Source: a virus
DNA length: 64,000 nucleotides
Direction: 5' to 3' (one strand)
Virus record (IMG/VR): IMGVR_UViG_3300031519_004866
Position numbers and translations under genes: made by a program. The notes beneath the pieces were generated by a model, which was given only the letters and a program-made list of their open reading frames with translations, searched no databases and was not told the DNA's origin. Shown piece after piece: positions 3,462-30,010 of this stretch (position 1 is its first letter; each line of letters starts with the position of its first letter).

Positions 3462-4442
3462 ATGAATGATTTTACTTTAATACCGTTTCACAATATTGTT
3501 AAGTTTGGGCAAAAGACCATGCTTGACCAGCCATTGTTTAATGTTAGCTGGATATTAGGCCGCTTTTGTAATTACAGTTGTAGCTACTGTTGGCCGTATG
3601 CAAACACAAATGTACCGGATCATCAGGAGTTTGAAATATATACTAATGCGCTTGATGAGATAAAACGTCAGGCTAGAGATAATGGCTTTACAGAATTCCA
3701 CTTTAGCTTTAGTGGTGGTGAGCCTACTGCGTATAAGAAGTTTGGTGATTTAATAGAACACTATGCCAACGATGATGATGCTAAGTATCTAAGTTTGCAT
3801 CTAACAACGAATTTAAGTCCAGGTAGTAAATGGTGGAACAGATTTATTGATGCTACACAGCATTTACACCGTCGAAGTATTACTGCAAGTTATCATGCAG
3901 AGTTTGCTAATGAACAAGAGTTTGGAGATAAATGTCTTCAGCTTATGAAAGGAGGAGTTTATGTTACGATCAATCAAGTTATGGTTCCTGAAATGTTTGA
4001 GGAACTTTACGAACGCCTGGAACGATTTGCCACCAGAGGTATCAATGTCACTCTCAAACCCCAATCTGACCCCACCGCATCTTTCGTTGTACATGGATAC
4101 ACTGAAGAACAAATCACAAGAATGCAAAGAGGATTCCCACAGCACTGGAAAGAAAAAGAAGTAATGCAAATGTACATGGAAGATGCCAAAGGCAACGACT
4201 ATGGGTTGGACCAAGCTGAACGCATGAACGCTTTTGGATTTAATAAATTTAAAGATTGGACATGTAACGCAGGATATCAAAGCTGCATTATAAGCGGTGA
4301 TACTGTCAAGAGAGCATATAGTTGTAGCGATAAACCATTAGGTACGCTACAGGGCGGTTTTACGCTGTTTAAGACACCAACTAAATGTATTACCGATACA
4401 TGTGTAAGTAGTGCAGACAGTAAGATACCAAAGGTAAAGTAA
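3462..4442 (+). CDS. Radical SAM enzyme with C-terminal Cys-rich (twitch/SPASM-like) extension
   Basis: CNYSCSYC (CxxxCxxC), SGGEP, C-terminal CNAG...C..CITDTCVSSAD; start set at ATG 3462, 8 nt after TAAATA. Confidence 0.9.
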   Translation: MNDFTLIPFHNIVKFGQKTMLDQPLFNVSWILGRFCNYSCSYCWPYANTNVPDHQEFEIYTNALDEIKRQARDNGFTEFHFSFSGGEPTAYKKFGDLIEHYANDDDAKYLSLHLTTNLSPGSKWWNRFIDATQHLHRRSITASYHAEFANEQEFGDKCLQLMKGGVYVTINQVMVPEMFEELYERLERFATRGINVTLKPQSDPTASFVVHGYTEEQITRMQRGFPQHWKEKEVMQMYMEDAKGNDYGLDQAERMNAFGFNKFKDWTCNAGYQSCIISGDTVKRAYSCSDKPLGTLQGGFTLFKTPTKCITDTCVSSADSKIPKVK

Positions 4443-5044
4443 TGAAGATTGATATTCAAGATATAAAGTTTTGGATGGACGCTATTCGCAACAGCGAAGA
4501 TAGAGACCGTACACTTGAAAGTTTTTGGGGAGGCCAGTTAAAATCAAAAACTTGGTTAATTGAAACTTTAGAAAAGTCTAATCATGTTGCCAATGCTGAA
4601 GTAGTTATATTTGGTGGATGGAATGGAGTGTTAGCTAACATGCTGTTTAATAGTAGCATAGGGTTTAAACATATTACAAGTGTAGACATTGATCCTGTAT
4701 GCGAAACCGTTGCATTGACAATTAACAAACGTCAAGAAATGGAAGGACGTTTTATAGCAGTAACATCAGATATGTGTGATTACGAATATACAAATAAACC
4801 TTATTTTGTTATTAATACAAGTTGCGAACATATTAGTCAACAACAATATAATAAATGGTTAAGTAATGTTCCAGAAGGCTCGAAGATAATATTACAATCA
4901 AATAACTATTTTGACCTTGAAGAACATGTTAACTGTAGTGCATCATTAGAAGAATTTGCAAGAAAGTCTAAGTTAAAAGTATTACACTCAGCTGAATTAG
5001 AATTACCTAAGTACAAAAGATTTATGATTATAGGAAACCTTTAA
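4442..5044 (+). CDS. Class I SAM-dependent methyltransferase-like protein
   Basis: VVIFGGWNG motif I, ITSVDID, INTSCEH; stop/start overlap with both neighbours. Confidence 0.75.
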   Translation: MKIDIQDIKFWMDAIRNSEDRDRTLESFWGGQLKSKTWLIETLEKSNHVANAEVVIFGGWNGVLANMLFNSSIGFKHITSVDIDPVCETVALTINKRQEMEGRFIAVTSDMCDYEYTNKPYFVINTSCEHISQQQYNKWLSNVPEGSKIILQSNNYFDLEEHVNCSASLEEFARKSKLKVLHSAELELPKYKRFMIIGNL

Positions 5045-6126
5045 TGTTTGACTTTAATGATCTAAAAACTATTCACATTGAGCTAACAACAAACTGTCAA
5101 GCAAAATGTCCAATGTGTTCAAGAAACATACACAGCGGAGTAGAAAATCCGCTATTACGAATAGTACAATGGACATTGGACGATTTTAAAACTATTATTA
5201 ACAAAGAAGTACTAGACACAATTAACCGTGCGTACTTCTGTGGTAACTTTGGCGATCCATTACTAAATGACAGTCTTATTGATATGTGCAGATATGTAAA
5301 GGACACCAGTCCTAAGACAGCAATAGGTATACATACAAACGGTAGTTTAAGGAATGCAAAATGGTGGTCAGATCTAGCAAAAGCATTACCAGAAGACCAT
5401 TGCGTTTACTTTGCTCTTGACGGACTAGAAGACACTCATAAATTATATAGAGTTGGCACAGATTGGAATCGTATTATTGAAAATGCAAAAACATTTATTG
5501 CAGCCGGAGGCCGTGCTAACTGGACATATATCAAATTCAAACACAACGAGCACCAAGTTGATAAATGTAGACAAATTGCAAAAGATTTAGGCTTCCAAGA
5601 TTTCACAGTTAAAAACACATCAAGATTTTTAGTTGAGCCTAAGTATGATGTATGGGATAAAAATAAAATTCCACTGTATAGTTTAGAAGCACCATCTGAT
5701 ACCGAAACACACTTTTTACCTAAAGAAGTTATTGACAATTATAAATCAGTTTTAGACGAAGCAGAAATAGATTGTCATGTACAACAAATAAAAGAAATAT
5801 ACATTGATGGTTCTAAAACAGTATTACCATGTTGTTGGTTAGCACAAACTCCAATGACTCATTATGATCCTGCACATGTTTGCGAAGATGTTATAGATAT
5901 GTTAAGAGGACAATATAGTAAAATGATAAGTGACTTTGGCGGTATAAGCAATCTTGATGCAACTAAAGGAATAAAAAATATTATTGACTCTGACGTTTGG
6001 CAAAACATATGGAAAAAGAAATGGAATGAAGATAAAATGCTAATGTGTGCAAGAACATGTGGTAAGTTTAAAACATTTAATATCTCACAACCACAAGATC
6101 AATTTATTGAAAGAGAAATGTTATGA
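5044..6126 (+). CDS. Radical SAM enzyme with SPASM-like C-terminus
   Basis: CQAKCPMC, GNFGDP, HTNGS, PCCW...CARTCG. Confidence 0.9.
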   Translation: MFDFNDLKTIHIELTTNCQAKCPMCSRNIHSGVENPLLRIVQWTLDDFKTIINKEVLDTINRAYFCGNFGDPLLNDSLIDMCRYVKDTSPKTAIGIHTNGSLRNAKWWSDLAKALPEDHCVYFALDGLEDTHKLYRVGTDWNRIIENAKTFIAAGGRANWTYIKFKHNEHQVDKCRQIAKDLGFQDFTVKNTSRFLVEPKYDVWDKNKIPLYSLEAPSDTETHFLPKEVIDNYKSVLDEAEIDCHVQQIKEIYIDGSKTVLPCCWLAQTPMTHYDPAHVCEDVIDMLRGQYSKMISDFGGISNLDATKGIKNIIDSDVWQNIWKKKWNEDKMLMCARTCGKFKTFNISQPQDQFIEREML

Positions 6127-7529
6127 CAGATTGGCACTACGATAAAGAAGATACTAGATTAGGCAAGTTTCAAAGAGAGCTTGAATCTGTTTCTAGTAGT
6201 ACGTTTTGTGTACTTCCGTGGATACACATGGCAACTAGGCCTAACGGTGATATGCGCTTATGTTGTACTGCTAATGCTAGTGGAGCTGGAGACGATCACG
6301 AAGTTGGTCTTGTAAAAATGGAAGATGGCAAACCTGCAAACTTTGGCAAACATACTCCAATGGAAGCATGGAATAACGATTACATGAAAAGTGTACGTAC
6401 AACTATGCTTAAAGGAGAGATCCCTGCAAGTTGTAAAGGATGTTTCAAAGAAGAGTCACAAGGCATTGTTAGCAAACGTATATGGGAAAGTGCAACATGG
6501 AAAAATGATGAAGGTATTGATATACCAGAACTTATTGCACAAACACAAGAAGACGGAACCGTGCCTGAACAATTAAAATATCTGGATCTAAGATTAGGAC
6601 ATACATGCAATATTAAGTGTGTAATGTGTAGCCCGCATGATTCAAGTAAGTGGGTTGCGGACCATAAAAAACTTATTCCTGTACTACAAGACCCAGAAGT
6701 TAAAAGACAAATGCAATGGGATAAGAAACTTTTTAACAACAAATGGCACGAAAAAGATGCTTTTTGGCAAGAACTCAATGCGCAAATACCTTACCTTAAA
6801 CAAGTATATTTTGCTGGAGGAGAGCCGTTAATGATCAAAGAGCATAAACGCTTTCTTAAAGAAATTATTACACAGGGCTATGCTGACAAAATTTTAGTAA
6901 GGTACAACTCCAATGGTTTGCTAGTTGACAACGAGTTAATTGATATATGGAGTAAGTTTAAGAAAGTTAAATTTGCAGTAAGTATCGACTCGTATAAAGA
7001 GCGTGACGAATACATTAGATTTCCAACTAACTTTAAACAAGTTGAAAGCACATTACATTTACTAGATAACACTCCCGACAACATTCATGTTAGCATTGCA
7101 ACAGCAGTACAAATATTCAATATAAAAACTATACCCGAATTTATTAAATGGAAAGTTAATAGTAATTTTAAAAAGATGAATGTTGGTTTGATTGATGGAC
7201 ATATTATGGGAGGCGGCCTTTTAAATGCACACTTAGTACACATACCAACATTTTTAAATATTACAATACTGCCTGAAAAAGACAAGCAAGAAGTACGTGA
7301 AAAGTTCGCTGAACTAAAACAATGGTTATGGAATAACTTTACACAAGACGATGAGTTTTGGAAACACAATCCTAAAGGTTGGCGCCAATGGGAAGGGTTA
7401 CTAAAGCACATGGATAGTTGTGATAACAGTCATATGTTACCTGGCTTTAAAGAGTATGTAAATAAATTAGATGCAATCCGTGGCTTGAATGCCGCATCAG
7501 TATTTCCGGAGTTATCACATTTACTATGA
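6123..7529 (+). CDS. Radical SAM enzyme with N-terminal SPASM/twitch-like domain
   Basis: N-terminal FCVLPW...RLCC...CKGC, then CNIKCVMC and AGGEP. Confidence 0.9.
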   Translation: MTDWHYDKEDTRLGKFQRELESVSSSTFCVLPWIHMATRPNGDMRLCCTANASGAGDDHEVGLVKMEDGKPANFGKHTPMEAWNNDYMKSVRTTMLKGEIPASCKGCFKEESQGIVSKRIWESATWKNDEGIDIPELIAQTQEDGTVPEQLKYLDLRLGHTCNIKCVMCSPHDSSKWVADHKKLIPVLQDPEVKRQMQWDKKLFNNKWHEKDAFWQELNAQIPYLKQVYFAGGEPLMIKEHKRFLKEIITQGYADKILVRYNSNGLLVDNELIDIWSKFKKVKFAVSIDSYKERDEYIRFPTNFKQVESTLHLLDNTPDNIHVSIATAVQIFNIKTIPEFIKWKVNSNFKKMNVGLIDGHIMGGGLLNAHLVHIPTFLNITILPEKDKQEVREKFAELKQWLWNNFTQDDEFWKHNPKGWRQWEGLLKHMDSCDNSHMLPGFKEYVNKLDAIRGLNAASVFPELSHLL

Positions 7530-8536
7530 CAGATATTATTAAGATTGTTAATACTAGAGAAGAAGATTATATAGCAATTACATACTTCCCTACAGATATT
7601 TGTAATTTTGATTGCACGTATTGTTTTCCAGGAAGTCACCCATCTAAATATAGATACAGAAAAGACACAGACTTTGTCATTGACAACTTTAAAAAATTAT
7701 TTGCTTTTTATAAATTAAAATTTAATAAATCTAAAATATATTTTGAAATTGCCGGTGGCGGCGAACCAACACTATGGCCGGATTTATTAAAATTTTGCAA
7801 AGAAATTAAAAAAGTTCCAGACTTATCTATAGCACTAGTATGCAACGGATCAAGAACACTTCGTTGGTGGGACACTATTATTCCCTATATTGACGAAGTT
7901 ATGTTAAGTTACCATAACGAATTTACAAAAACAGATCATTACATCAATGTAGCAGATTTGATTTGGGAGAATGGTAAGAAAGTAAATGCTATGGTATTAA
8001 TGGATTATCCTAATTGGGATAAGTGTATCGATGCAATTGAACAAATGAAACAAAGTAAATACAACTGGTTTATAAATGCAAAAGAAGTAGTAACTGCTCC
8101 AGGGCACGATGTAGAATCATATACTTTAGAACAAAAAGAATATTTAAAACAACCTATTAAGCGGTTGCCTGATTCAAGTTATATACTAAACAATCTACAA
8201 GATTATAGAATGGTCGAAAGTGTTGCAATACTTAATAACGACAAAGTAGTTACAGCAGGTCCTAATTATTACTTAATAAACTCTATTAATAATTTTAAAG
8301 GATGGGCATGTAACGTAATATCTGAAAAAATAACTATTTTTCCTTCTGGCAAAATAACAGGATCGTGTAATATAGACTTTGATTATGATTTAAATTTATA
8401 CTCGACCACGTTAGAAAAAGACTTAAAACAAGTTACATTACCTTATGTAACATGTACTATGAATTGTTGTGCTTGTCTAAGTGATAATCACATTACAAAA
8501 TCAAAGCCAGCTATTATTCCTGCAGTACCTTTGTAA
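7526..8536 (+). CDS. Radical SAM enzyme
   Basis: CNFDCTYC, GGGEP, C-terminal WACN...SC...CTMNCCAC. Confidence 0.9.
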   Translation: MTDIIKIVNTREEDYIAITYFPTDICNFDCTYCFPGSHPSKYRYRKDTDFVIDNFKKLFAFYKLKFNKSKIYFEIAGGGEPTLWPDLLKFCKEIKKVPDLSIALVCNGSRTLRWWDTIIPYIDEVMLSYHNEFTKTDHYINVADLIWENGKKVNAMVLMDYPNWDKCIDAIEQMKQSKYNWFINAKEVVTAPGHDVESYTLEQKEYLKQPIKRLPDSSYILNNLQDYRMVESVAILNNDKVVTAGPNYYLINSINNFKGWACNVISEKITIFPSGKITGSCNIDFDYDLNLYSTTLEKDLKQVTLPYVTCTMNCCACLSDNHITKSKPAIIPAVPL

Positions 8537-9428
8537 GAGGTATATCAGCAGCACACGTACACCATTTACGAGTACAAGTTATCCATTCTTCAGGCTGCTC
8601 AAAACTGCCATCATAGATGTTACCTATACTTCCACCTACTCTACAAGTAGCACGATGTACATCGCCATCCCAATTAATCATTAGGCTTTCAATTCCTGCA
8701 CTGCATTTCCAACCTTTAAATTGATTTAGGTGTTGTTTAATAACATCGTTGGCATGCATCTTAGTTGTGTCGTCAATAATTACATTAGGATTTACGGTAG
8801 ACGTTCTGTCTAATATCCATTCTAAATCTTTACCTTCATATTTCAAATCATCAAACACATCATGGTCACCTTCTGTCCATCGTATTCGTCTTACAACATA
8901 AGGAATACAGTGTCCATCAAACATTGTAGCACACTCTTTTACTCTATCCATAAATTGATGATGTGCCATTAAGTTAACTTGAAATGGCTTTTGTGTATAC
9001 GCACCTTCATTTAATTGAGAAAACAATAATACTGTTTCTGCGCATCGTCTCCAATTTTCAGTATCTTCTACGTGCAAACTAAACACAATGTGACTTACAT
9101 TAAGATCGTTGTAGTACTCGGCTGTGCGGGTTCCGTTGGTAGTTACGTTAACCCACTCAAGCTGTTGACCTTGCATTGCATGATCAACTAGTTCTACAAA
9201 CTGTGGATGAACACACGGCTCACCGCCTGTGAAACTTACACGTATTGGCTTGCCAATTTCCCCTAGTGCATCAACTGCATCTAACAATACTTTAATATTT
9301 GTGTGTGGGCTAGTGTTGTCATGAATTGCTGCTGGGCAATAACTACAATCTAAGTTACAGCGTTTACCTAAATTCCATTCAACATGAACGCTATCTTGTC
9401 GATCATAACTAGAAGCTATTTTAAACAT
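8514..9428 (-). CDS. Radical SAM enzyme
   Basis: CNLDCSYC, TGGEP, TTNG, C-terminal CSAG...TC...CTRKWCTC; start may be 9428 or 9437. Confidence 0.9.
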   Translation of the reverse strand: MFKIASSYDRQDSVHVEWNLGKRCNLDCSYCPAAIHDNTSPHTNIKVLLDAVDALGEIGKPIRVSFTGGEPCVHPQFVELVDHAMQGQQLEWVNVTTNGTRTAEYYNDLNVSHIVFSLHVEDTENWRRCAETVLLFSQLNEGAYTQKPFQVNLMAHHQFMDRVKECATMFDGHCIPYVVRRIRWTEGDHDVFDDLKYEGKDLEWILDRTSTVNPNVIIDDTTKMHANDVIKQHLNQFKGWKCSAGIESLMINWDGDVHRATCRVGGSIGNIYDGSFEQPEEWITCTRKWCTCAADIPLTKVLQE

Positions 9429-10692
9429 ACGGCGCAAACTCTGGATTTATAACTTCAAACGGTCCTTGCTTACGACTTTTGTCTAAGTTACGATTAAAGT
9501 TAATACAGTCTTGCCATAACTCGTCGTGTAAATCGTCTGCTTGTAAGAAGTTAATATTATCCTGAATCTGCGTTAATGTAAAATCTTTAATTCTGCTATC
9601 ACTTTTTACAAGTTTGTAATCTAAAACTTTTTCTTTCATTGCTTCTAGTTTATCAATTACTTGTAGTTTTAGTTCATTAGGAATAACCTGTGCTGATAAC
9701 GCCTTAGGATATTGTACTCTATGACTGTAGAATATAATTTCCATGTTCTCCATAAAGTACTCAATTACTTTATCAATTTGCATTATATTGTTTGACTGTA
9801 CAGTAAATGCTCCAACAATTCTACTAACTGTAGGAATTGTTTTCATAATTTTAATATTTTCTTCAATCTCAATAAACTTGCCATTGCCTCTAATGTATTC
9901 ATAGATATCGTGTATACCGTCTATGCTTACATTAACAGCAACACTTTTAAACTTAGGCCAATATTCGTGTACAGTTCGACCGCCCTTAATACCAAGTGTA
10001 GTTCCGTTAGTAGCATACTTTAATTCAATGTTCTCTCCATACGGTGCTAACATATCTAAAATTTTATAATGTTGAGGATCCATTAATGGTTCGCCGCCTG
10101 CAAACTCTACTCGTCTAAAGTAGGGCAATAGTTTCTTAAAACTACTCCACCAATTATCTGTATCTTCAAATGCATCAATATATTGACCTGGCTTTTTAAC
10201 CAGTGCATTAACTGTTGGAATGAGAAAGTTATTTTCTTTTTTGTAAAATTCTGTAACTTGATCCCAGTCTTTCCATTGTGTGCTATCTAACGGGTTACAC
10301 ATACGACATTTAAGATTACATAAGTTGTTTAACTTTACTTCCATTGTAGGTATTTCAAATGGCATTGAATAATCATCTTCTAAGGCGTCTAATGCATTAG
10401 GATATAAATTAATCCTAGCTTCTGGTATAACACCTTCTATATGTCGCTGACGTAAACTTTGAACTCCTTGGTCTTCTAACCTAAAACAAGGTGCGCATAC
10501 TTCAGGTCGTTCGTCATTCATTACCTGCCGGCGTACCTCTTTAATCTTGTCTCCGTTCCAAATTTCTTCTAGTGTGTTATCTTTGATATCGCCAATAGGA
10601 GCACTGCGGCAACAAATCTTAATTGCGCCATCTTCTCTAGTTGCTAATCCTGTAAAAGGATGCATACAAAAAGTTTTACTGTTGCATGGCAT
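9421..10692 (-). CDS. Radical SAM enzyme with N-terminal SPASM/twitch-like domain
   Basis: FCMHPF...ICC...CAPC, then CNLKCRMC and AGGEP; start moved to ATG 10692, which has a GGGGAG SD. Confidence 0.9.
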   Translation of the reverse strand: MPCNSKTFCMHPFTGLATREDGAIKICCRSAPIGDIKDNTLEEIWNGDKIKEVRRQVMNDERPEVCAPCFRLEDQGVQSLRQRHIEGVIPEARINLYPNALDALEDDYSMPFEIPTMEVKLNNLCNLKCRMCNPLDSTQWKDWDQVTEFYKKENNFLIPTVNALVKKPGQYIDAFEDTDNWWSSFKKLLPYFRRVEFAGGEPLMDPQHYKILDMLAPYGENIELKYATNGTTLGIKGGRTVHEYWPKFKSVAVNVSIDGIHDIYEYIRGNGKFIEIEENIKIMKTIPTVSRIVGAFTVQSNNIMQIDKVIEYFMENMEIIFYSHRVQYPKALSAQVIPNELKLQVIDKLEAMKEKVLDYKLVKSDSRIKDFTLTQIQDNINFLQADDLHDELWQDCINFNRNLDKSRKQGPFEVINPEFAPYV

Positions 10693-11416
10693 TGGTAACT
10701 CCCCATTGTCTTTCTTGGCACCAAAAACATTTTTTACATGTTGGAACATATTGTCCTGGCTTGTATGTTGCGTAGTCTAATCCTTTAAACACTTCCGGAT
10801 ATTGCTCATTATCACCTTCGCAACTTCTTGTTATATTGAGTAACTCGGCAATATCATATTTTATAAATTGCCCAATAATCCAATCTTTTCTAGTTTCTAT
10901 AAATGGGTGACAAACTGTAACTCCCATATGTAACATTATAGCATCTATTGATGGTGTTTGTCTATCATTTAATGCACCTTCTAACTCTACATCGGGGTTT
11001 AATGTTACTCCTGCAAACCATGCATCTAACTTTTCCTTGTGTGCTAGATACTCATTAAACGATCGTAAAATAATTCTGTTTCCAGATTTCATTTTACCAT
11101 TTTCGTCTTTGATCATAGTTGTGTGTGGTTCTTCTAGATCGGGTGGTATAAAGTTTGTGTGTCTTATAAATTCAAGTTCTGGAAATTTAGCAATAAACCA
11201 ATCAAACACTTCAGCTGAAATGTGTTCTTGCCATGGCCTTGTTTTCCAACAGCGTATCTGTGTACTAATATGTACCCTGCAATTTACAGGTAAATTTTTA
11301 CATACCAAATATGTTAATAATGCACTGTCTGCGCCACCGCTAAGGCTTATGCCAATATTTCTCCATTTTGGATCAATGGGGAAATCTACATGATCTATTT
11401 TAATCCACTTACGCAT
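10676..11416 (-). CDS. QueC-like PP-loop ATPase (adenine nucleotide alpha-hydrolase superfamily)
   Basis: ISLSGGADS PP-loop; C-terminal TRSCE...TCKKCFWCQER Zn-type motif; start at ATG 11416, 5 nt after TAAATA. Confidence 0.75.
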   Translation of the reverse strand: MRKWIKIDHVDFPIDPKWRNIGISLSGGADSALLTYLVCKNLPVNCRVHISTQIRCWKTRPWQEHISAEVFDWFIAKFPELEFIRHTNFIPPDLEEPHTTMIKDENGKMKSGNRIILRSFNEYLAHKEKLDAWFAGVTLNPDVELEGALNDRQTPSIDAIMLHMGVTVCHPFIETRKDWIIGQFIKYDIAELLNITRSCEGDNEQYPEVFKGLDYATYKPGQYVPTCKKCFWCQERQWGVTNAMQQ

Positions 11417-22006: not shown

Positions 22007-22975
22007 ATGGATAATAGATTAAGCCTGCCTGATAATGAATTCGGCCAAGCAGCAGTATGCATTATCATAAACAATACTTGTAATCTTACATGTAATGAAT
22101 GTGGTACATTGCAAAATTATAACTTTGCAGGAGTAATGTCTTGGAAGGAAGAAAAGCATCTTTATGAAGAATGGGCTAAGAAAGCAAACTTCCCAGATAT
22201 TGACATACTAGGAGGAGAGCCATATCTTAATCCTGAACTACTAGATTGGGCGTTAGGTATTAAAACCCTATGGCCAGAGAGCCGAGTGAGTGTTGTAACT
22301 AACGGAACACTATTAGGATTGAAAAAGAATGTCGAAGCAACTCGTACATTTTTAGAAGCAGGTGTGTGTTTAAATTTATCAGGCCATGCTCAAAAAGATG
22401 TTCCTAAATTTAAAATGTTCATTGATAAAATTCTAGAACCATTCGGCGACAGAGCTCAAAGGATAAATCCAGATTATGATGATCCACACGGAATTGAACA
22501 TCTAGATATGTGGCAGATTGATGGACAGTATGCTATTGGACACACTCTTGTAGATAAGATGTTTCCTAATTATATAAAAGAAGTAAAAGATAACACAATA
22601 ATTTTAGATGATGGCGATAGAGAAAAGAGCCACGATGCGTGTATATACGGACAACACTGTCATACGCTACAACGAGGCAAACTATTTAAATGTCCTCTAG
22701 TGTTAAACTATGACGAATTAAAAACACAAACATACTACGAAGAAAGAGCATATCCATTATTAGAAGATTATAAAGCGTTAACAGTGGATCAAGACAAAGA
22801 AACAATGCAAGACTTTTTTAACAATATAGGAAAGTCAATTCCAGCATGTTCTTTGTGTGCTATGCATAAAAAACCAGATCCAAAAAAACTTTCAGTTGAT
22901 GTAAAATTTGATAAAAACAGAAAGAAAGCATTCAAAGGAGTAGATCTTGTCAAAGTTAAAAATCTCACATCTTGA
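22007..22975 (+). CDS. Radical SAM enzyme
   Basis: CNLTCNEC, LGGEP, VTNG, KLFKCP...CSLC; TATAAATA 5 nt upstream. Confidence 0.9.
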   Translation: MDNRLSLPDNEFGQAAVCIIINNTCNLTCNECGTLQNYNFAGVMSWKEEKHLYEEWAKKANFPDIDILGGEPYLNPELLDWALGIKTLWPESRVSVVTNGTLLGLKKNVEATRTFLEAGVCLNLSGHAQKDVPKFKMFIDKILEPFGDRAQRINPDYDDPHGIEHLDMWQIDGQYAIGHTLVDKMFPNYIKEVKDNTIILDDGDREKSHDACIYGQHCHTLQRGKLFKCPLVLNYDELKTQTYYEERAYPLLEDYKALTVDQDKETMQDFFNNIGKSIPACSLCAMHKKPDPKKLSVDVKFDKNRKKAFKGVDLVKVKNLTS

Positions 22976-23783
22976 GTGGCACGTAGCTCACTCATGTAAT
23001 CTTACATGTGTAGGGTGTGGGCATTTTAGTAATCATAGACATACAGGTATAGTAAAATATGACGAATTAGAATCTTGGTACAAGAGTTGGGCTCATAGAC
23101 TTGATCCGAAAACAATTGACATACTAGGAGGAGAGCCTCTACTAAACAAAGACATTTATAACATTCTTTTCTTAACAAGAAAGTATTGGCCAGACTGTGA
23201 AAATTTAAATTTACAAACTAATGGCTTTTTGCTTTACAAGTATCCTGACTTACCTAAAGTGCTAGAAGAAACTAATATATCTATTAGCCTTAGTAAGCAC
23301 AGTACTAAAGAAGCATATATGAAAAAGTTTACGCCTGCAGAAGAATTACTATTACAATGGAAAAAAGATTATAATATTAAAGCAGAAGTTTCCCCATGCC
23401 ATACATATTGGTTTGAAATATATAAAGGGTATGGAAACAACATGATGCCCTATGAAGATAATGATGCACAGAAAAGTTGGGATAATTGTATTACCGGACA
23501 AGATTGTTTCCAACTACTAGATAACGAAATATACAAATGTTCGCCACTAGCATATCTTCCGTTTCAAAAGAAATTATACAACTTATCTCCTAAGTGGGAT
23601 CCCTATTTAAAGTATAAGCCAATAACAGCAGATTGCACAGATCAAGATCTAGCAGAGTTTTTTGCTAGAGGATGTGAAAGTTTTTGCTCAATGTGTCCTA
23701 CTAATCCAAAGCGTATGGATCAACAAGGTGATCCAACAACACCAAGATCACACTACGAAAACATAAAAATTCAACAGGTATAA
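22947..23783 (+). CDS. Radical SAM enzyme (paralog of 22007-22975)
   Basis: CNLTCVGC, LGGEP, QTNG, IYKCSP...CSMC. Confidence 0.9.
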   Translation: MSKLKISHLEWHVAHSCNLTCVGCGHFSNHRHTGIVKYDELESWYKSWAHRLDPKTIDILGGEPLLNKDIYNILFLTRKYWPDCENLNLQTNGFLLYKYPDLPKVLEETNISISLSKHSTKEAYMKKFTPAEELLLQWKKDYNIKAEVSPCHTYWFEIYKGYGNNMMPYEDNDAQKSWDNCITGQDCFQLLDNEIYKCSPLAYLPFQKKLYNLSPKWDPYLKYKPITADCTDQDLAEFFARGCESFCSMCPTNPKRMDQQGDPTTPRSHYENIKIQQV

Positions 23784-23784
23784 T

Positions 23785-24720
23785 ATGCAAAAGTTTCCAT
23801 ACGATAAAAAACATTTACCATTTGGACATTCAGGAGCAGTCCTCGATCAAGAAGTAATGAACTTTTTGAACATGATACCTCTTAGATTCACAGAACACAT
23901 GTATGATGTAAATGTAACTGAAGAATATTTAGAAAGATATCATGCTTGGATTAGAATGTCAGCTCTAAATTTAATAGCAGGGCTAGATGATTTTCCTTAC
24001 AAATGTTACTCTCATGGTACTACTGAATCATTTGATAAGTTTTACATGAAGCACAAAGATAGAAGATTTAGATGCTTTAGAGGTGAATATCTATATCATC
24101 AGTTAGCATGGCGTGATAAATTTAATTGGTTGTATGCCGATGATGATTGCTTAGATGCTAATGACGCACTAGTTATTAGTTTACCTTTTAGTAATACAGG
24201 AAACAAACACAAGTTACACGAAGCAGCATTAAATGAATGCGATAGACTAGGTATACCTGTTTTACTTGACTGTTGTTACTTTGGTATATCGTCTGCTATA
24301 GAATTTAATTTTAAGCATGAATGTATAACTGATATTGTTTTTAGTTTATCAAAAACATTTCCAGTAGCACATGCAAGAATAGGTATGCGTTTAAGCAAAT
24401 ACGATGACGATGATACTTTGTTTGTTTATAACAAAAACAGTTACGTGAATAGACTAGGTGCTTATATAGGTTTACAGTTAATGGAAAATTACAGTCCTGA
24501 CTTTATCTACAAAAAGTATAAATCACAACAATTAGAATTTTGTAAACATCTGGATGTTGAGCCTAGCAGTACTGTGTTGTTTGGTATTGCGCCTCAAGAT
24601 AAGTATGTTGAATACAATAGAGGCAGCGGCAGTCCTGATGCTGAACTAAACAGGCTTAGTTTTCATAAATTTTTATCTATGTCAGTTGAGGAGTTTGCAC
24701 AGTGCATAAAGCAAGAGTAG
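23785..24720 (+). CDS. PLP-dependent fold-type I aminotransferase-like enzyme
   Basis: PVLLDCCY (PLP Asp), SLSKTFPVAHARIG (Schiff-base Lys motif). Confidence 0.75.
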   Translation: MQKFPYDKKHLPFGHSGAVLDQEVMNFLNMIPLRFTEHMYDVNVTEEYLERYHAWIRMSALNLIAGLDDFPYKCYSHGTTESFDKFYMKHKDRRFRCFRGEYLYHQLAWRDKFNWLYADDDCLDANDALVISLPFSNTGNKHKLHEAALNECDRLGIPVLLDCCYFGISSAIEFNFKHECITDIVFSLSKTFPVAHARIGMRLSKYDDDDTLFVYNKNSYVNRLGAYIGLQLMENYSPDFIYKKYKSQQLEFCKHLDVEPSSTVLFGIAPQDKYVEYNRGSGSPDAELNRLSFHKFLSMSVEEFAQCIKQE

Positions 24721-25889
24721 TTAATATTGAATGGACTGCTGATAATAACAGATGGAATCTTGATAAAACGGTATTCAGCGAATTAAAACTAAAGTGGATA
24801 TTCAAAGAATTTAAACAAGCAGCCAAAGACGGATGTAATACTGTTATTGCAGTAATGATGATCGATGGTGTTCTAAACCCAGAGCCAGATATTTGGCCAG
24901 GTGAAGTTGCTAGAATGAAAGAACGTTGTACAAAACTAGGAATAGAAAAACTAGTGTTTGTTTCGGGTCATGGCGGTTACGAATATATAGTACCTTTAGC
25001 ATTTGATAAAATATATGCTATTGATTACACACTCCAATTTACTTATAAGTCTTACGAAGATAGAATTACCAAAAACAAACTAACTGAATATAATCCACAT
25101 GCAGATAAATTTCTATTTCTTGGCGGCGTGCCATCGAGGATGAATCGTATAGGATTGCTTTACAAGTATTATAAACTTGGAATGTTAGACTACAATGCTA
25201 TTTGGACATTCTTTGTTCCATGGACAGAAAGTGAACGCAAAGTGTGCAAGGATTTAATGCACATGTTAACAGACGAAGATCTAACCAAGTTTTACAATTT
25301 TGCCAAAAGAAGAATAGGCGATGAGTACGAACATGCTAAACAGTTTTTTGCAGATAACACAAGTGACTGGCATGATGTTGGAGAAACTGATTGGGCTAGA
25401 GCACCTGCACTGATTAACAGTAGTATATTTCCAGAAACGTGTTTAAGCATTATTAGTGAAGGTCCTAACTATTGGGATCACAATGCAAACAATTCTTTTG
25501 TAACAGAAAAGTTTTGGAGAGCAGCATTTCACAAACATCCGTTCTTGTTTGCGGGCGACTTAGATCAATTTAAATATATGGAAACTCTTGGGTTCCGAAC
25601 CTTTGCAGAATATATGACTATACCAGAGTATGCATACCTTGAAACAGAGGAGCAACGTCTTGATGCAATTGTAACCAATACAGCAGACTTTTTAAAACTT
25701 CAGAAGCCACAAAAATTAATTGATGATATAGAACACAACTATCAATTAGCAAAGCGTTATGTTGATAAGCAACATTTACTTCTTGATCATCTAGTTGATC
25801 ATTATGGGGCACCAAGAAATGAAGTAAATTATTATCTTAATCAAACAGGATATACTAATCTAGTACAGAGGCCGCCATCGTATGAGTAA
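24702..25889 (+). CDS. Glycosyltransferase-like protein (GT10/fucosyltransferase-like C-terminal motif)
   Basis: LSIISEG...FVTEKFWRA...HPFLFAG...LGFRTF resembles the GT10 Y(V/I)TEK motif; GTG start with GAGGAG SD. Confidence 0.5.
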   Translation: MHKARVVNIEWTADNNRWNLDKTVFSELKLKWIFKEFKQAAKDGCNTVIAVMMIDGVLNPEPDIWPGEVARMKERCTKLGIEKLVFVSGHGGYEYIVPLAFDKIYAIDYTLQFTYKSYEDRITKNKLTEYNPHADKFLFLGGVPSRMNRIGLLYKYYKLGMLDYNAIWTFFVPWTESERKVCKDLMHMLTDEDLTKFYNFAKRRIGDEYEHAKQFFADNTSDWHDVGETDWARAPALINSSIFPETCLSIISEGPNYWDHNANNSFVTEKFWRAAFHKHPFLFAGDLDQFKYMETLGFRTFAEYMTIPEYAYLETEEQRLDAIVTNTADFLKLQKPQKLIDDIEHNYQLAKRYVDKQHLLLDHLVDHYGAPRNEVNYYLNQTGYTNLVQRPPSYE

Positions 25890-26796
25890 ATGTGCAGCAT
25901 TTTATAAGCATACTAATGTGCGTAGCGGAAATAGAATATTTCCTTGTTGTCGCTATAAAGAACCTATAGCTGTGTTCGACGGTAATTTAAACAGGGTACT
26001 TGACTTACCAGAGATGCAAAAGTTAAGAGAAACACCTGTTGAAGATAACCCTAATTGTGCAAAATGTGTACACGAAGAGTCGTTAGGAAAAAACAGTTTG
26101 CGTGAACGCTTTAATGCTGAGTATAACACACAAGAAGTAAAATTAGAATATTTAGAAATAGGGTTTGATAATATTTGTAATGCAGCCTGTGATGGGTGTT
26201 ATCCAGAGTTTAGCAGCGAGTGGGGTAAGATACTAGACCCAAACAAAAAGAATCATATTGTAAGCAGTGACGAAATAACTTCTATTCCAGATACTGTAAC
26301 AAAGATATTATTCTTAGGAGGCGAACCATTAATGACTAACAGACACAGACGCCTATTAGAAATGGTAACCGACCTAAGTAACATGACAGTAATATACAAC
26401 ACCAATGGTACATTTATGTTAGACAAAGAAACTATAATACAACTTGAAAAATGTAAAAGTGTTGAATTTATTCTAAGTCTTGATGGCTATGGTGAGCTAA
26501 ATGAGCGTGTAAGAAAAAACTGTAAATGGAGTAAGATAGAACGCTTTATTGATCAAGTAAAGATATGTGGTTATAAATTAAGTGTAAACACTGTACTCCA
26601 CAAAAATAACTATCACGGACTTGTTGATTTAGAAAACTATATTAACAGTTTAAAAGATGTTGAATGGTCAGTAAACATACTTACATTCCCTCAAACATTA
26701 GATGTTAATACGGTTGAAAATAAACAAGCAGTAATAGATAGTATAGTGAAAACAAATATAGCAAACAAGGAAGCACTTATTAAACATGTTACATGA
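25882..26796 (+). CDS. Radical SAM enzyme with N-terminal SPASM/twitch-like domain
   Basis: KCAAFY...PCC...CAKC, then CNAACDGC and LGGEP. Confidence 0.88.
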   Translation: MSKCAAFYKHTNVRSGNRIFPCCRYKEPIAVFDGNLNRVLDLPEMQKLRETPVEDNPNCAKCVHEESLGKNSLRERFNAEYNTQEVKLEYLEIGFDNICNAACDGCYPEFSSEWGKILDPNKKNHIVSSDEITSIPDTVTKILFLGGEPLMTNRHRRLLEMVTDLSNMTVIYNTNGTFMLDKETIIQLEKCKSVEFILSLDGYGELNERVRKNCKWSKIERFIDQVKICGYKLSVNTVLHKNNYHGLVDLENYINSLKDVEWSVNILTFPQTLDVNTVENKQAVIDSIVKTNIANKEALIKHVT

Positions 26797-27337
26797 TATT
26801 AGATTATACGCTGACTATGACAAGTTTTTACAAGTAGTAGAAGCAGCAAAGACTGCTATACCAAATAAGTTTTGTATTGTAGAACATCTAGTTAATGTAA
26901 CAGAATATGATGACAGCCCTGACTTGACAGATATACACCCAAAAGATAGAAATAACGTAGACTTCCGTGTCTGTATATTTTATCCAGACAAAGATAATAC
27001 AATACCAAGACTAAAACCTGTGTGCGATATACTTGAAAATATGCAAGGAGTTGAACGTGCTGCAATTATCAACATAGGTCCTAAGTCTATTATGCCAAAG
27101 CACATTGATGATATGGAAAGACCTTTATACGAAGAAACTCCATTCTATAATGTGTTTACAGGTTTTCAAATTCCACAAGGAGATTTAGGTGTTAAAGTTG
27201 GAGAAGATTTAGCAGACGTTAGCAACCCGATAGTTTTTAATGCACAAATACCACACGAAGCATGGAATCAAACTTCGCAAGACTGGTTATCTTTACTGAT
27301 ATATATTAATAACGATACATTTAAAAAGGAACAATAA
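26786..27337 (+). CDS. Asp/Asn beta-hydroxylase-like oxygenase
   Basis: IGPKSIMPKHID...IPHEAWN. Confidence 0.7.
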   Translation: MLHDIRLYADYDKFLQVVEAAKTAIPNKFCIVEHLVNVTEYDDSPDLTDIHPKDRNNVDFRVCIFYPDKDNTIPRLKPVCDILENMQGVERAAIINIGPKSIMPKHIDDMERPLYEETPFYNVFTGFQIPQGDLGVKVGEDLADVSNPIVFNAQIPHEAWNQTSQDWLSLLIYINNDTFKKEQ

Positions 27338-28389
27338 TGAAAGTATCTACTCACAACCATTGGGATCCCTTAGAAGAGATAGTAGTTGGAATAGCTGACC
27401 ATGCTAGAGTACCAACTGTAGATCGTAGCACTATGAGCATGAGCTACACTAATCATCCTATGGATTTGATTAAACCTTTAGAGGGTGAATATCCTAAATG
27501 GCTTATTGATGAAGCAAATGAAGATCTACAAGGGTTAAGTGATGTACTATCTAAAGCAGGTATAAAAGTACACAGACCTATTCCAATTGATCACAGCAAA
27601 GAATTTAGTACTCCTGAATGGAAAACTACAGGATGGTATACATGGTGTCCTAGAGATTTACTATTGCCTATGGATAACTTAGTTATTGAAACTCCTAGTG
27701 CTTGTCGTGCAAGACAGTACGAAACTAGAGCATACAGAGATATTATGTTAGAAGCAATTGCCGACGGTGTTGAATGGATTGCTGCGCCTAAACCAACCCT
27801 ACCGGATGAAGGCTATCAGTTTGATGACATTGAGGGTAAACCCAGTTTGTTAAATCTAGAGCCTATCTTTGATGCACCTAACTGTGTACGTCTGGGCAAA
27901 GACATATTGTTTCAAATTAGCAACACAGGAAACCATTGGGGATTAAAATGGTTGCAAAATGTACTAGAGCACAGAGGGTATCGTATACACCCTGCAGAAC
28001 ACATTTATAGTTACGGACACTTTGACAGCACAATAGTACCTCTACGTCCTGGATTAGTATTATTAAACAGTTCAAGAGTAACCGCAGAAAACTGTCCTAA
28101 AGTATTTGAGAAATGGGATAAAATTTGGTTTGATGATTGTGTTGCCCAAGGCAGCAAAATTCCAGGAGGAGTTGCACCATGCAGTCCTTACATTGGTATG
28201 AACATTTTAAGTATTGATCATAATACAGTTGTTGTAGACGATACGCAAGAACCTCTAATGCGTGAGTTAGACAAGCACGGTATTACTAGTGTACCTGTAC
28301 GCTTTAGACATGCTATGACTTTAAGTGGTGGGTTGCATTGTGCAACACTTGATTTAAAACGTAAAGGCGTATTGGAGGATTATACATAA
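27337..28389 (+). CDS. Amidinotransferase (glycine / scyllo-inosamine-4-phosphate amidinotransferase StrB1 family)
   Basis: HNHWDPLEEIVVG, CPRD, GHFDST, C-terminal GGLHCATLD with catalytic Cys. Confidence 0.9.
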   Translation: MKVSTHNHWDPLEEIVVGIADHARVPTVDRSTMSMSYTNHPMDLIKPLEGEYPKWLIDEANEDLQGLSDVLSKAGIKVHRPIPIDHSKEFSTPEWKTTGWYTWCPRDLLLPMDNLVIETPSACRARQYETRAYRDIMLEAIADGVEWIAAPKPTLPDEGYQFDDIEGKPSLLNLEPIFDAPNCVRLGKDILFQISNTGNHWGLKWLQNVLEHRGYRIHPAEHIYSYGHFDSTIVPLRPGLVLLNSSRVTAENCPKVFEKWDKIWFDDCVAQGSKIPGGVAPCSPYIGMNILSIDHNTVVVDDTQEPLMRELDKHGITSVPVRFRHAMTLSGGLHCATLDLKRKGVLEDYT

Positions 28390-28883
28390 TGTTAAAGTAT
28401 TGGGGCAATGTAACTGACTTCTGGAAAGAAGATTTACAGAATTACACATGGCCTGAGTCTGTAAGTACAGGACAGAACGAAAATTTTCATGATGCTTACT
28501 TTGATGAATCTAATAATTTAATGCAAGGGTTTGATGGGCAATTGCCAACCTGCTGTGATAGATTCTTTAAAGAACTATACATTGAAAAAAAAGAAATTAG
28601 CAGCATAAGTTGGACACAAATTAAACCGTCAGGGACTATTCCTGTACATGCAGATAAATTTTTTAAACTTAGAACAAAACATAATTTAGATATTGATGAT
28701 TGTGTAAGATATCTTATATTTTTAGAAGATTGGACGTTAGGTCATATGGTTGAGTTTGAGCAACAACCAGTTACTAAATGGAAAAAAGGTGATGTATGGA
28801 CATTTACACACGACGATTTACACTGTGCTGGAAATGCCAGTAACCATAACTTTAACACATGCCAAGTAAACACGAGGAAATAA
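28389..28883 (+). CDS. Fe(II)/2OG cupin oxygenase
   Basis: PSGTIPVHAD...RYLIFLEDW..GH...LHCAGN; same subfamily as 14294 and 19533. Confidence 0.65.
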   Translation: MLKYWGNVTDFWKEDLQNYTWPESVSTGQNENFHDAYFDESNNLMQGFDGQLPTCCDRFFKELYIEKKEISSISWTQIKPSGTIPVHADKFFKLRTKHNLDIDDCVRYLIFLEDWTLGHMVEFEQQPVTKWKKGDVWTFTHDDLHCAGNASNHNFNTCQVNTRK

Positions 28884-30010
28884 TGGAACTAACTTCTCTA
28901 CAAAAAGAATGGAATAACTGTACACTTGAGTACGATCTAGAAAGATTTAATTGGCCTGCATGGGCTTTAAGTGTTGTACAAGAAGTAGCGCCAACTGTTA
29001 CTAAATTAGAAACACTACACGAAGTGCTATCTCCTAAAGAGATTGTAACAGTTAGTAAGCATGTACAGAATGCGTGTAGCCGTAAAGACTTTATGGAACG
29101 CTTTGATGCGTTTGTTGCTGAATACATTCCGCAGCGTATTGACGGTAAACGATTTATGATACAGCGCCAAGGAACATTGCGTGTTGTTATTCCAAATCAA
29201 GCAAAAGTAGGCAGACGTTTGCAGTTTCATCAGGGCATTTTTGTAGGCAACGGTAGAGGTTGTAGAACTATATGGACACCGTTCACTGAAGCTCGTGGCA
29301 CTAATACAATGTGGATGGTTGACCTAGAAAACAGCCGCCGTATTACTAAAGACTTTGTTACAGAAAAATGGAGTCTCGAACGTATGGAAGATGAATGTTT
29401 AAAGGTTGCGTTTCCTGTTACTCTTAAACCAGGACAAAGTCATTTATTTTTCCAAGAAATGTTACACGGCAATGTCAACAACGAAGAAGGATATACTCGT
29501 GTTAGCATGGATATGCGTATCTTAATTGAAGGTGAAGAATACGGACGCAGACATCCAGGAGGCTTTATGCGATTGCCTGGCGATCATGAAGTAGCAGAAC
29601 TAGGAGACTATTCCGGCAAGAGTGCAATTACATATGCAGGATGGGCTAGTGATTTTTCTAGGAATGTTACACTACCTATGCAAAGAGCAATTATTGATCA
29701 GTACTGCGAAAGAACAAATATACAATACACTAGTTATGAATTTGAGAATGATCATTGTGATTGGCAGCCAAGTTTAGAATATTTTATTAAACAACAACCT
29801 GATGTGATTGTTCTTAACAGTATGTACAGCCTTACTGATGATGCAGAGCGCAGAACAGAATTATTAAATTTAGCATTAAGATTAGGTGTAGAGTTGCATT
29901 TTGCAAACGAATTGACAGTTCTTAAAACACAAGATGATTTAGATAAAATTGAAACCTATCTCAATTTTGCAGTAGAAAAATTAGAACCTTATGTTTGGGA
30001 ATTAGTGTAA
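28883..30010 (+). CDS. StrG-like 2OG oxygenase fused to a 'sporadic carbohydrate cluster' (LIC12192-like) domain
   Basis: N-part QRQGTLRVVIP...FHQG...LHGNVNN...TRVSMDMR; C-part TLPMQRAIIDQYC...QPDVIVLNSMYSL; recognised by motif only. Confidence 0.55.
   Translation: MELTSLQKEWNNCTLEYDLERFNWPAWALSVVQEVAPTVTKLETLHEVLSPKEIVTVSKHVQNACSRKDFMERFDAFVAEYIPQRIDGKRFMIQRQGTLRVVIPNQAKVGRRLQFHQGIFVGNGRGCRTIWTPFTEARGTNTMWMVDLENSRRITKDFVTEKWSLERMEDECLKVAFPVTLKPGQSHLFFQEMLHGNVNNEEGYTRVSMDMRILIEGEEYGRRHPGGFMRLPGDHEVAELGDYSGKSAITYAGWASDFSRNVTLPMQRAIIDQYCERTNIQYTSYEFENDHCDWQPSLEYFIKQQPDVIVLNSMYSLTDDAERRTELLNLALRLGVELHFANELTVLKTQDDLDKIETYLNFAVEKLEPYVWELV

Follow-up and report, generated by a model that had tools for sequence, protein, structure and literature searches.

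The subject of this analysis is a dense gene island at positions 3462–30010 of the window, a stretch of 64,000 nucleotides (nt) from the virus record IMGVR_UViG_3300031519_004866. The island is composed of 32 genes with a coding density of 101% (refined starts at 3462, 11416, and 11471 were used for the layout). Its principal constituents are ten radical S-adenosylmethionine (SAM) enzymes and a series of Fe/2-oxoglutarate (2OG) oxygenases, accompanied by an amidinotransferase, a nucleotide-sugar dehydratase/epimerase, and a number of proteins of less certain family. An earlier note on this DNA had described tight packing in alternating cassettes, an architecture upheld by a largest gap of 54 nt and by seven strand switches, with overlapping ends where genes converge. 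The same note found no obvious scaffold gene, which likewise stands: given the coding density and the largest gap, there is no room between genes for one encoding a precursor peptide. Taken together with its conservation described below, the island reads as a coherent and maintained pathway with mosaic cassettes.

The ten radical SAM open reading frames (ORFs) named in the earlier note are all genuine members by profile, scoring 33.9–49.6 bits against the 29.5-bit gathering threshold of Pfam PF04055. All ten retain an intact CxxxCxxC motif, and nine carry GGEP. Two paralogous sets can be discerned, one comprising 3462, 7526, and 8514 and the other 16993, 22007, and 22947, with 5044 standing apart (genes are named here by their leftmost position). 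The leftmost enzyme (3462–4442, + strand; PF04055 E 4.5e-12) bears CNYSCSYC and GGEP motifs and a cysteine-rich C-terminal tail of the auxiliary-cluster type; TAAATA-N8 precedes its refined start, and a homologue in Bdellovibrionota is 50% identical. Gene 5044 (5044–6126, +; E 3.1e-8; CQAKCPMC) has three homologues in a module of Campylobacter phage CP220. Enzyme 7526 (7526–8536, +; E 1.7e-12) is accessory and missing from the close relatives L005, L010, and L011, while the C-terminus of 8514 (8514–9437, −; E 6.5e-13) matches the tail of the STM4011 family. Further to the right lie 16993 (16993–18003, −; E 4.4e-11) and its two paralogues, 22007 (22007–22975, +) and 22947 (22947–23783, +), the latter 42% identical (E 1e-68) to ORF306 of the cultured cyanophage S-SCSM2R. 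The remaining three belong, or probably belong, to the N_Twi_rSAM family (NCBIfam NF033640, whole-protein cut-off 170 bits), characterized by a four-cysteine twitch domain placed N-terminal to the radical SAM core. In the family alignment C29, C104, and C107 are invariant and C48 nearly so, all ahead of the CxxxCxxC motif. Gene 6123 (6123–7529, +) reaches 397.8 bits and has its SPASM-type domain N-terminal to the core; 9421 (9421–10749, −) reaches 319.7 bits, with a SPASM match (E 2.7e-10) at residues 28–88. The shorter 25882 (25882–26796, +), above threshold for PF04055, scores 164.8 bits, just below the family cut-off, and is probably a short N_Twi_rSAM member.

The second abundant class is that of the Fe/2OG oxygenases, of which the earlier note had counted about ten. 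Six are firmly supported and a seventh marginally; an eighth is faintly indicated, whereas 18715 and 28859 matched no family. The firm six comprise two recognized by Pfam and a family of four recognized by an invariant triad and by fold. A prolyl-4-hydroxylase-type enzyme (14806–15420, +) matches 2OG-FeII_Oxy_3 at E 3e-11, and an Asp/Asn β-hydroxylase-type enzyme (21236–21967, −) matches Asp_Arg_Hydrox at E 1.5e-6, with homologues of up to 43% identity in nine Bdellovibrionota loci. The marginal case is an AspH-like cupin oxygenase (26786–27337, +; E 2.9e-4), whose 21.2 bits fall short of the 22.6-bit Asp_Arg_Hydrox cut-off. The other four are small double-stranded β-helix (DSBH) proteins, two of them adjacent (13713–14297 and 14294–14821, both +), a third at 19533–20033 (+; hhalign 99.9% to 14294), and a fourth at 28389–28883 (+; hhalign 98.5% to 19533), the homologue of which adjoins the amidinotransferase gene in S-SCSM2R. 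None of the four has a Pfam match, yet they form one family (hhalign 95–100%) in which H105, D107, H159, and R120 are invariant, amounting to an H-x-D…H triad with an accompanying arginine. The AlphaFold model of this family (predicted local distance difference test score, pLDDT, 94.9) resembles in Foldseek the viral collagen prolyl hydroxylase (vCPH) of PBCV-1, AlkB, prolyl 4-hydroxylase (P4H), and AspH (E ~1e-4, template modelling score 0.42–0.50). Gene 11471 (11471–12133, +) is possibly a cupin or AspH-like oxygenase as well (Asp_Arg_Hydrox E 0.14; hhalign 65% to the DSBH family). No link to the small DSBH family was seen by hhalign for 18715, 28859, 14806, 21236, or 26786.

Among the remaining enzymes, the amidinotransferase (27337–28389, +) is the most securely assigned, and the earlier call is here strongly corroborated. 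Residues 3–349 align with the inosamine-phosphate amidinotransferase StrB1 of the streptomycin pathway (PDB 1bwd; E 1.4e-95, 324 bits), followed by HsvA, SxtG, and AGAT at E 1e-57 to 1e-62, and a GGLHC sequence at the C-terminus fits the catalytic-cysteine GGxHC motif of amidinotransferases. By these matches 27337 is a full-length, L-arginine-dependent member of the StrB1/AGAT family with the pentein fold and a putative amine acceptor. It is under tight constraint, with a ratio of nonsynonymous to synonymous substitution (dN/dS) of 0.027, and has homologues in S-SCSM2R and CP220. An epimerase predicted earlier is equally well borne out at 12130–13044 (+), an NAD-dependent nucleotide-sugar 4,6-dehydratase/epimerase of the extended short-chain dehydrogenase/reductase (SDR) type (Pfam GDP_Man_Dehyd 2e-38 and Epimerase 1e-37) with LegB, RmlB, and GalE types as its best NCBIfam matches. 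The gene at 10676–11416 (−), with its start at 11416 following TAAATA-N5, encodes a PP-loop ATP pyrophosphatase of the adenylating amidotransferase/thiolase type, with an invariant SGGxDS motif and a C-terminal cysteine cluster of invariant C199, C230, and C233. It had been called QueC-like, a label that does not hold beyond a generic PP-loop ATPase: the match to Pfam QueC (PF06508) is at E 0.067 and 13.1 bits, below the 22-bit cut-off, and the family profile retrieves ThiI, AsnB, and NadE and no QueC.

Several further proteins are recognized by fold or motif. Two kinase-like proteins, as proposed, stand at the level of the fold: 13013 (13013–13726, +; AlphaFold pLDDT 80.7) resembles Hck, WbdD, and Bud32 in Foldseek (E ~1e-5) and the IRAK3 pseudokinase in a structure comparison (VIA Z 13.3), and 17993 (17993–18688, −), which starts after TAAATA-N5, is its paralogue. 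An alignment of 18 sequences contains no invariant catalytic aspartate, and the pair may be atypical kinases or pseudokinases. A pyridoxal 5′-phosphate (PLP) enzyme announced at 23785–24720 (+) is supported by motifs and homologues as a probable, short class I/II aminotransferase-like protein, whereas its family profile found nothing significant in the PDB. Of its 1163 homologues, one has PF00155 and one is called an aminotransferase by its source, and the family shares invariant D162..Y165, S187-x-S189-K190, and R198-x-G200. The glycosyltransferase-like protein of the earlier note (24702–25889, +) is retained as a virus-only candidate with an FVTEKxW motif like that of GT10 fucosyltransferases, an ESM Atlas lead to GT10 at 0.78, and invariant R146, N148, R149, E269, and K270, which presumably resemble residues of Helicobacter pylori FucT. 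The Pfam GT10 model gave no match in related contigs, where the positive control likewise gave none.

The methyltransferase and two SDRs of the earlier note are answered by faint matches. The core gene 4442 (4442–5044, +) encodes a Rossmann-type protein weakly like SAM methyltransferases (Methyltransf_25 E 0.19); its family profile had no match in the PDB. All 80 of 80 viral loci contain it; 14 bacterial loci have it too, with identities reaching 41–43%. GGW.G, D84, and NTSCEH are invariant. The paralogous short SDR-like Rossmann proteins at 15375–15875 and 15876–16478 (both +) have a TGxxxGIG motif and match Pfam adh_short/Epimerase and NCBIfam SDR models at E ~1e-4. The GNAT assignment of 16452–17009 (−) is unconfirmed: Pfam, PHROG, and NCBIfam gave no match; the protein is conserved in 15 loci (dN/dS 0.11). 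Equally without a match are a conserved 271-residue protein (18715–19530, +; 23 loci, dN/dS 0.075), a virus-only 412-residue protein (20011–21249, −; searched in Pfam, PHROG, and PDB) whose ESM Atlas neighbours are virus-only clusters, and a 383-residue accessory protein (28859–30010, +) absent from the relative G002 and present in L171, a 341,834-bp scaffold. Single-sequence searches of the PDB found nothing for 23785, 24702, 13013, 20011, or 28859, and PHROGs offered almost no annotation for 19 unknown proteins.

The island is maintained as a unit. Relative to the nearest relative, dN/dS is 0.03–0.26 for 32 of 33 genes (the adjoining fibre gene included, 9421 left out), denoting purifying selection. 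Homologues of the radical SAM enzyme 6123 occur in 278 IMG/VR contigs at 74–94% identity, and the order 3462, 4442, 5044, 6123, (7526), 8514, 9421, PP-loop gene, 11471 is kept in nearly all of some 280 viral contigs. Instead of the scattered orthologues that the earlier note had reckoned with as the contrary outcome, linkage is thus conserved. The downstream cassettes are the mosaic part, having been gained, lost, duplicated, or inverted among relatives, some of which hold up to nine N_Twi genes.

A second unifying feature is a short signal at the cassette starts. At each of the three divergent junctions both strands have TAA(A/G)TA-N5-ATG: TAAATA-N5-ATG on each strand of the 54-nt junction at 11417–11470; TAAATA-N5-ATG (−) and TAAGTA-N5-ATG (+) across the 26 nt of 18689–18714; and TAAGTA-N5-ATG (−) and TATAAATA-N5-ATG (+) across the 39 nt of 21968–22006. 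Throughout the window, eight of ten TAA[AG]TA-N5-ATG sites open cassette-leading ORFs of at least 220 amino acids, against a baseline in which 9% of ATGs overall begin an ORF of at least 150. In 1.16 Mb of related viral loci (L002–L091) the N5 spacing accounts for 163 sites versus 31–50 for other spacings, and 76% of the 163 open long ORFs (at least 150 amino acids); 1.27 Mb of Bdellovibrionota loci show no N5 spacing peak. The TAA(A/G)TA cores noted earlier at cassette starts are therefore non-random, provided that the spacing to ATG is included. The TATAAATA octamer is complete at one of eight cassette-start sites, the others having the TAA(A/G)TA core; TATAAATA and ATAAATA taken alone are depleted in the window, not enriched, and only the version with the fixed N5-ATG spacing is informative. 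The signal also precedes the fibre-like gene 192–1001 and gene 49417, and at N4 and N6 spacing TAA(A/G)TA precedes the adenylate cyclase gene (42859) and gene 55934. It looks like a lineage-specific gene-start signal. In T4-type phages the late promoter is TATAAATA at −10, recognized by gp55 and used for late-phase transcription. Five transcription units would begin at TAA(A/G)TA-N5-ATG, and because T4-late-type spacing places the first transcribed base at the A of the start codon, the arrangement suggests that the cassette transcripts are leaderless.

The carrier, an uncultured phage from the sea, is T4-like and of jumbo size, with the Methylophilales phage Melnitz (Kyanoviridae) and the pelagimyophages among its relatives. 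Its size class follows from L171, which carries the identical island gene for gene, and from related contigs of 107–169 kb rated only 31–46% complete. The adenylate cyclase of the window is 69% identical to that of Melnitz and 48% to that of Pelagibacter phage HTVC008M, and the curli genes, thyX, and the transfer-messenger RNA (tmRNA) have Melnitz counterparts; the island itself is not present in the Melnitz genome, and searches at the DNA level against cultured phages gave no match. On its right the island abuts a virion protein gene, as the earlier note had it: a fibre-like protein with an Mtd_N N-terminus (E 7e-7) and GDDSS repeats (30002–31480, −), the 3′ end of which overlaps that of 28859 by 9 nt. 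ATAAATA lies 42 nt upstream of this gene, its L171 orthologue has a faint PTL_trimer match, and tblastn with the protein returned no match. Beyond it, on the minus strand, are three 2OG-FeII_Oxy_5 oxygenases interspersed with small unknown genes (31556–32128, 34168–34779, and 34779–35378), an FkbM-type methyltransferase (35375–36052; E 1.9e-12), and a CTP_transf_3 cytidylyltransferase of KdsB/NeuA type (36104–36802; E 6.5e-22). The left flank contains a histone-like Hc1 gene together with thyX and the tail-fibre-like gene at 192–1001. In the three close relatives G002–G004, a KdsA homologue (G002:C1:1826–2983; DAHP_synth_1, E 5e-55) sits just left of the window-equivalent, where it and a PTPS/QueD-family gene accompany the fibre-like gene.

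Several features of these surroundings may be recorded in their own right. The Hc1-like gene between thyX and the island (3166–3438, −; 90 amino acids) matches chlamydial histone H1-like Hc1 (PF07432, E 2.7e-18), and the ORF overlapping it (3158–3469, +) is probably spurious. The G004 copy of the KdsA/PTPS-side gene at the G002:C1:1826–2983 position contains an in-frame TAG. The positional match in L171 (19867–20217) of the window ORF 33780–34103 (−) is recognized as Pfam RNA_pol_Rpb6, an RNA polymerase omega-like protein. The window encodes a tmRNA (62395–62752, −; tag ANANTAPGMALAA), as Melnitz also does, tRNA-Trp and tRNA-Thr (61982–62056 and 36038–36113, both −), and, at 40808–47899 (−), an adenylate/guanylate cyclase with a curli-type CsgF/CsgG/curlin/FecR operon of the kind known from Melnitz and pelagimyophages. 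Additional auxiliary genes, all on the minus strand, encode an HD_4 hydrolase (37239–37763), ClpP (38360–38917), an Rv2179c-like 3′–5′ exoribonuclease (52773–53354), and a Rieske-type ring-hydroxylating oxygenase α-subunit domain (60797–61888).

What might such an assembly make? We favour, at a probability of roughly 45%, a sugar-type tailoring pathway serving surface decoration, rather than one acting on a peptide or on DNA. Three considerations lead to this preference: the firmly assigned enzymes other than the radical SAM proteins all act on small molecules, mostly of the sugar type; homologous modules in S-SCSM2R, CP220, and Bdellovibrionota lie among glycosyltransferases; and the gaps of the island leave no space for a peptide-scaffold gene. 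Of the earlier reading, the idea of a phage-borne, coherent pathway rather than scattered metabolic genes is retained, and its glycan target gains indirect support from the nucleotide-sugar SDR, the StrB1-type amidinotransferase, the KdsB-like and FkbM-type neighbours, and the glycosyltransferase context. Our inferences on the class of substrate, the sequence of steps, the destination, and the timing run as follows. The product would be a nucleotide-sugar, ulosonic-acid, or aminocyclitol-like unit, both made and edited by the island. The nucleotide-sugar dehydratase/epimerase and the two SDR-like reductases would prepare keto or deoxy positions; the class I/II aminotransferase-like enzyme would add an amine, which the amidinotransferase would convert to a guanidino group with arginine as the donor; and the PP-loop ATPase would adenylate a carboxyl or acetamido group for amidation. 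Hydroxylation by at least seven Fe/2OG oxygenases (26786 being the marginal one) and C–H chemistry by the ten auxiliary-cluster radical SAM enzymes, conceivably epimerization, dehydrogenation, deoxygenation, or C–C/C-methyl steps, would then elaborate the unit, before the candidate GT10-like protein 24702 transfers it. A surface structure is its likeliest destination, either the fibres of the phage itself or the envelope of the infected cell, and KdsA, KdsB-like, and FkbM-type genes flank the island on both sides.

Several observations weigh against this sugar-type pathway. The window contains a single candidate glycosyltransferase, 24702, for which a motif and an Atlas lead at 0.78 speak but which neither Pfam (GT10, PF00852) nor a PDB profile search matched, and GT2 enzymes are all but missing from five related phage contigs. 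Neither an inositol or sugar-phosphate cyclase nor a flippase or polymerase was recognized, and six to seven genes are without an assignable family. The oxygenases find their best fold matches in prolyl and Asp/Asn hydroxylases and AlkB, whose known members have proteins or nucleic acids as substrates; likewise, 13013 and 17993 resemble protein kinases and pseudokinases, devoid of the invariant catalytic aspartate. We know of no N_Twi_rSAM member with an established substrate. As to timing, late expression of the cassettes would follow from the motif, and here Melnitz speaks to the contrary: its 92 kb contain only three such sites, none of them signalling at structural genes. Since Melnitz lacks both the island and the N5 signal at structural genes, late timing is not transferable from it.

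Some of these same observations fit a different substrate. Conceivably, the island modifies virion proteins directly, by hydroxylation, epimerization, cross-linking, or methylation, with the neighbouring fibre-like gene supplying the scaffold. The abutting Mtd_N gene (30002–31480) and the tail-fibre-like gene at 192–1001 would provide targets, the oxygenases match P4H, AspH, and the collagen prolyl hydroxylase of PBCV-1, and the kinase-like fold matches protein kinases and the kinase domains of lanthipeptide synthetases. SPASM/twitch radical SAM enzymes, judged by their NCBIfam neighbours, often act on peptides, and proteomics of S-SCSM2R virions detected a further amidinotransferase along with a prolyl dihydroxylase (PMC12801897). 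However, the amidinotransferase, nucleotide-sugar SDR, aminotransferase-like protein, PP-loop enzyme, cytidylyltransferase, and FkbM protein are enzymes of small molecules, and the homologous core adjoins glycosyltransferases in Bdellovibrionota, CP220, and S-SCSM2R, loci in which comparisons by island genes, the only fibre search made there, revealed no fibre-gene homologue. Nor did Pfam or NCBIfam detect a domain of the RRE type, the recognition element of peptides that are made by the ribosome and modified after translation (RiPPs), in the ten radical SAM enzymes. Direct protein modification is an unlikely, if still serious, explanation.

Alternatively, the unit may never be attached to anything. 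A diffusible guanidino-aminoglycoside or aminocyclitol-like compound, deployed against competing phages and microbes or used to manipulate the host, would accord with StrB1 being the best solved relative of the amidinotransferase, with the logic of oxidizing, transaminating, (phosphorylating), and amidinating that the island displays, and with the paucity of glycosyltransferases and lack of a flippase or polymerase. Twitch radical SAM enzymes, such as BtrN and AprD4, also occur in aminoglycoside pathways. The corresponding module of S-SCSM2R was even labelled "antibiotic synthesis genes" by its authors (PMC12801897). Against a free metabolite, neither a cyclitol synthase nor any gene for export or self-resistance was recognized, the kinase-like proteins lack a conserved catalytic aspartate, and the neighbours are genes of surface sugars, from the pathway of 3-deoxy-D-manno-octulosonic acid (Kdo) and of the FkbM type. 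Moreover, a lytic phage of small burst would have little time to profit from a product that diffuses away. Such a function strikes us as quite improbable.

Hypermodification of DNA or nucleotides as a defence against restriction, with the PP-loop protein, along with some of the radical SAM enzymes, serving as analogues of QueC and QueE or with the island decorating an already modified base, is very doubtful. A weak QueC-like signal does exist (PHROG 4e-6, beside the subthreshold Pfam match), three relatives have a PTPS/QueD-family gene immediately left of the window-equivalent, thyX is adjacent to the island, and AlkB-type folds figure among the oxygenase matches. CP220, with its related radical SAM and amidinotransferase module, replaces deoxyguanosine by 7-amido-7-deazaguanine. 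Opposing this, the profile of the PP-loop family leads to ThiI, AsnB, and NadE and not to QueC, none of the radical SAM enzymes has a QueE-specific match, and the same core stands beside glycosyltransferases in Bdellovibrionota. Phage systems of 7-deazaguanine DNA modification combine a transglycosylase of the DpdA/TGT family with FolE, QueD, QueE, and QueC. A search of 570 kb in five related contigs found no TGT/DpdA (PF01702) and no ThyA-type hydroxymethylase, a negative that is not decisive, since the contigs are fragments and DpdA3/4 are divergent. Finally, a RiPP-type peptide natural product matured by the SPASM/twitch enzymes, suggested by the many low-scoring NCBIfam neighbours that are RiPP maturases, is extremely improbable, given gaps of at most 54 nt that leave no room for a precursor gene unless it is an overlapping short ORF, no RRE, protease, or exporter seen, and an island otherwise dominated by enzymes of sugars and small molecules.

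The scale of the island bears on why it is kept. Across hundreds of marine phage contigs, purifying selection maintains ten radical SAM enzymes together with no fewer than ten Fe/2OG oxygenases (counting those in the flank), which argues for a costly product relevant to infection in the ocean. The likely chemistry is narrowed to an aminated, amidinated sugar-type unit, and the module can be traced to two cultured phages, S-SCSM2R and CP220, and to a bacterial counterpart in Bdellovibrionota. Were the product a glycan of the virion or the cell surface, it would bear on host range, superinfection exclusion, and the ecology of phages and predators; as a free metabolite, it would instead represent a natural product encoded by a phage. 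A bolder proposal, which we are more inclined to doubt than to believe, is that a glycan-editing engine is common to phages and predatory Bdellovibrionota. In it, expandable N_Twi arrays, Fe/2OG oxygenases, and the amidinotransferase would rewrite C–H positions of a surface sugar while it is being assembled or once assembly is complete. The outcome would be a fast-evolving guanidino-sugar coat on fibres or envelope, produced in the phage from leaderless late transcripts and used for recognition of prey or host or for exclusion of competitors. If true, radical SAM sugar chemistry would gain a new class, and the decoration would be the first of such complexity to be made by a phage.

How, then, does the island compare with systems already on record? 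In four papers that touch on such cassettes (PMC7029224, PMC5332604, PMC2853527, PMC12801897), passing mentions were found and no function was given. Of the same phage group and habitat are marine T4-like environmental genomes, in which radical SAM cassettes are gained and lost near fibre genes and sets rich in Fe–S proteins occur: radical SAM cassettes are mentioned in passing in the host-recognition cluster of pelagimyophages (PMC7029224), and one T4-like environmental viral genome has 12 radical SAM genes (PMC5332604). These reports offer counts or a single sentence, with no anatomy, partners, promoter signal, or bacterial counterpart. The present island adjoins the curli/cyclase variable region; that it belongs to the pelagimyophage VrlC-gp14 host-recognition cluster is at most conjecture. 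A biochemical analogy is furnished by the streptidine branch of streptomycin biosynthesis, where StrB1 (1bwd) is a full-length relative of 27337 and the logic of dehydrogenase, aminotransferase, and amidinotransferase is held in common. It differs in that no inositol-phosphate or cyclitol synthase is recognized in the island, the kinase-like proteins are atypical, and the radical SAM enzymes and oxygenases, which make up most of the island, have no counterpart in the streptidine pathway.

Campylobacter phages CP220 and CPt10 carry an interchangeable radical SAM module (Timms et al. 2010, PMC2853527). CP220 is T4-like, as is the window phage. Its five radical SAM genes, among them homologues of the 5044 and 8514 types, are accompanied by a PAP2 phosphatase, two nucleotide-diphospho-sugar transferases, and an amidinotransferase of the glycine/inosamine type that shares 30% identity with 27337. 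Its module is half the size of the island, no 2OG oxygenase is annotated in the stretch compared, it has no PP-loop homologue, and its sole N_Twi-type match is a weak one to 25882 (E 1.5e-5). Conversely, it possesses clear GT-A genes and the PAP2 phosphatase, both of which the window lacks, and its host is microaerophilic whereas the habitat of the window phage is oxic and marine. Synechococcus phage S-SCSM2R is likewise T4-like, and marine. Its module, whose role was left unclear (PMC12801897), has four elements in common with the island: a radical SAM enzyme (42% to 22947), a 2OG oxygenase of small size, an amidinotransferase of the inosamine type (35%), and a PLP enzyme. There is one radical SAM enzyme to the island's ten, and five annotated glycosyltransferases surround the module; its PLP enzyme is of the DegT/AHBA-synthase type whereas that of the window is of class I/II, and the left-hand core (3462–11416) was not found in the S-SCSM2R region compared.

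A likeness is also found in bacteria. A scan of prokaryotes with the N_Twi alignment, taking one genome per species, gave 260 hits, and the best 80 of the 260 are almost all from Bdellovibrionota, megabase contigs included. No paper on these arrays was found. The loci (L095–L170, from metagenome-assembled genomes and chromosomes) preserve both the core of the island and its gene order, with identities reaching 50%: the methyltransferase-like gene and radical SAM enzymes of the 6123 type (up to 49%), the 5044 type, and the 3462 type (up to 50%). They also share the pair of aminotransferase-like protein and amidinotransferase and an AspH-like oxygenase. Their arrays reach at least seven N_Twi genes. 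They differ from the phage island in being chromosomal, in being devoid of the TAA(A/G)TA-N5-ATG signal, and in adjoining GT2 genes. Two complete Bdellovibrionota chromosomes have GT2 genes inside the radical SAM array loci themselves: 2 of the 12 GT2 hits in one genome and 1 of the 7 in the other fall within 21 kb.

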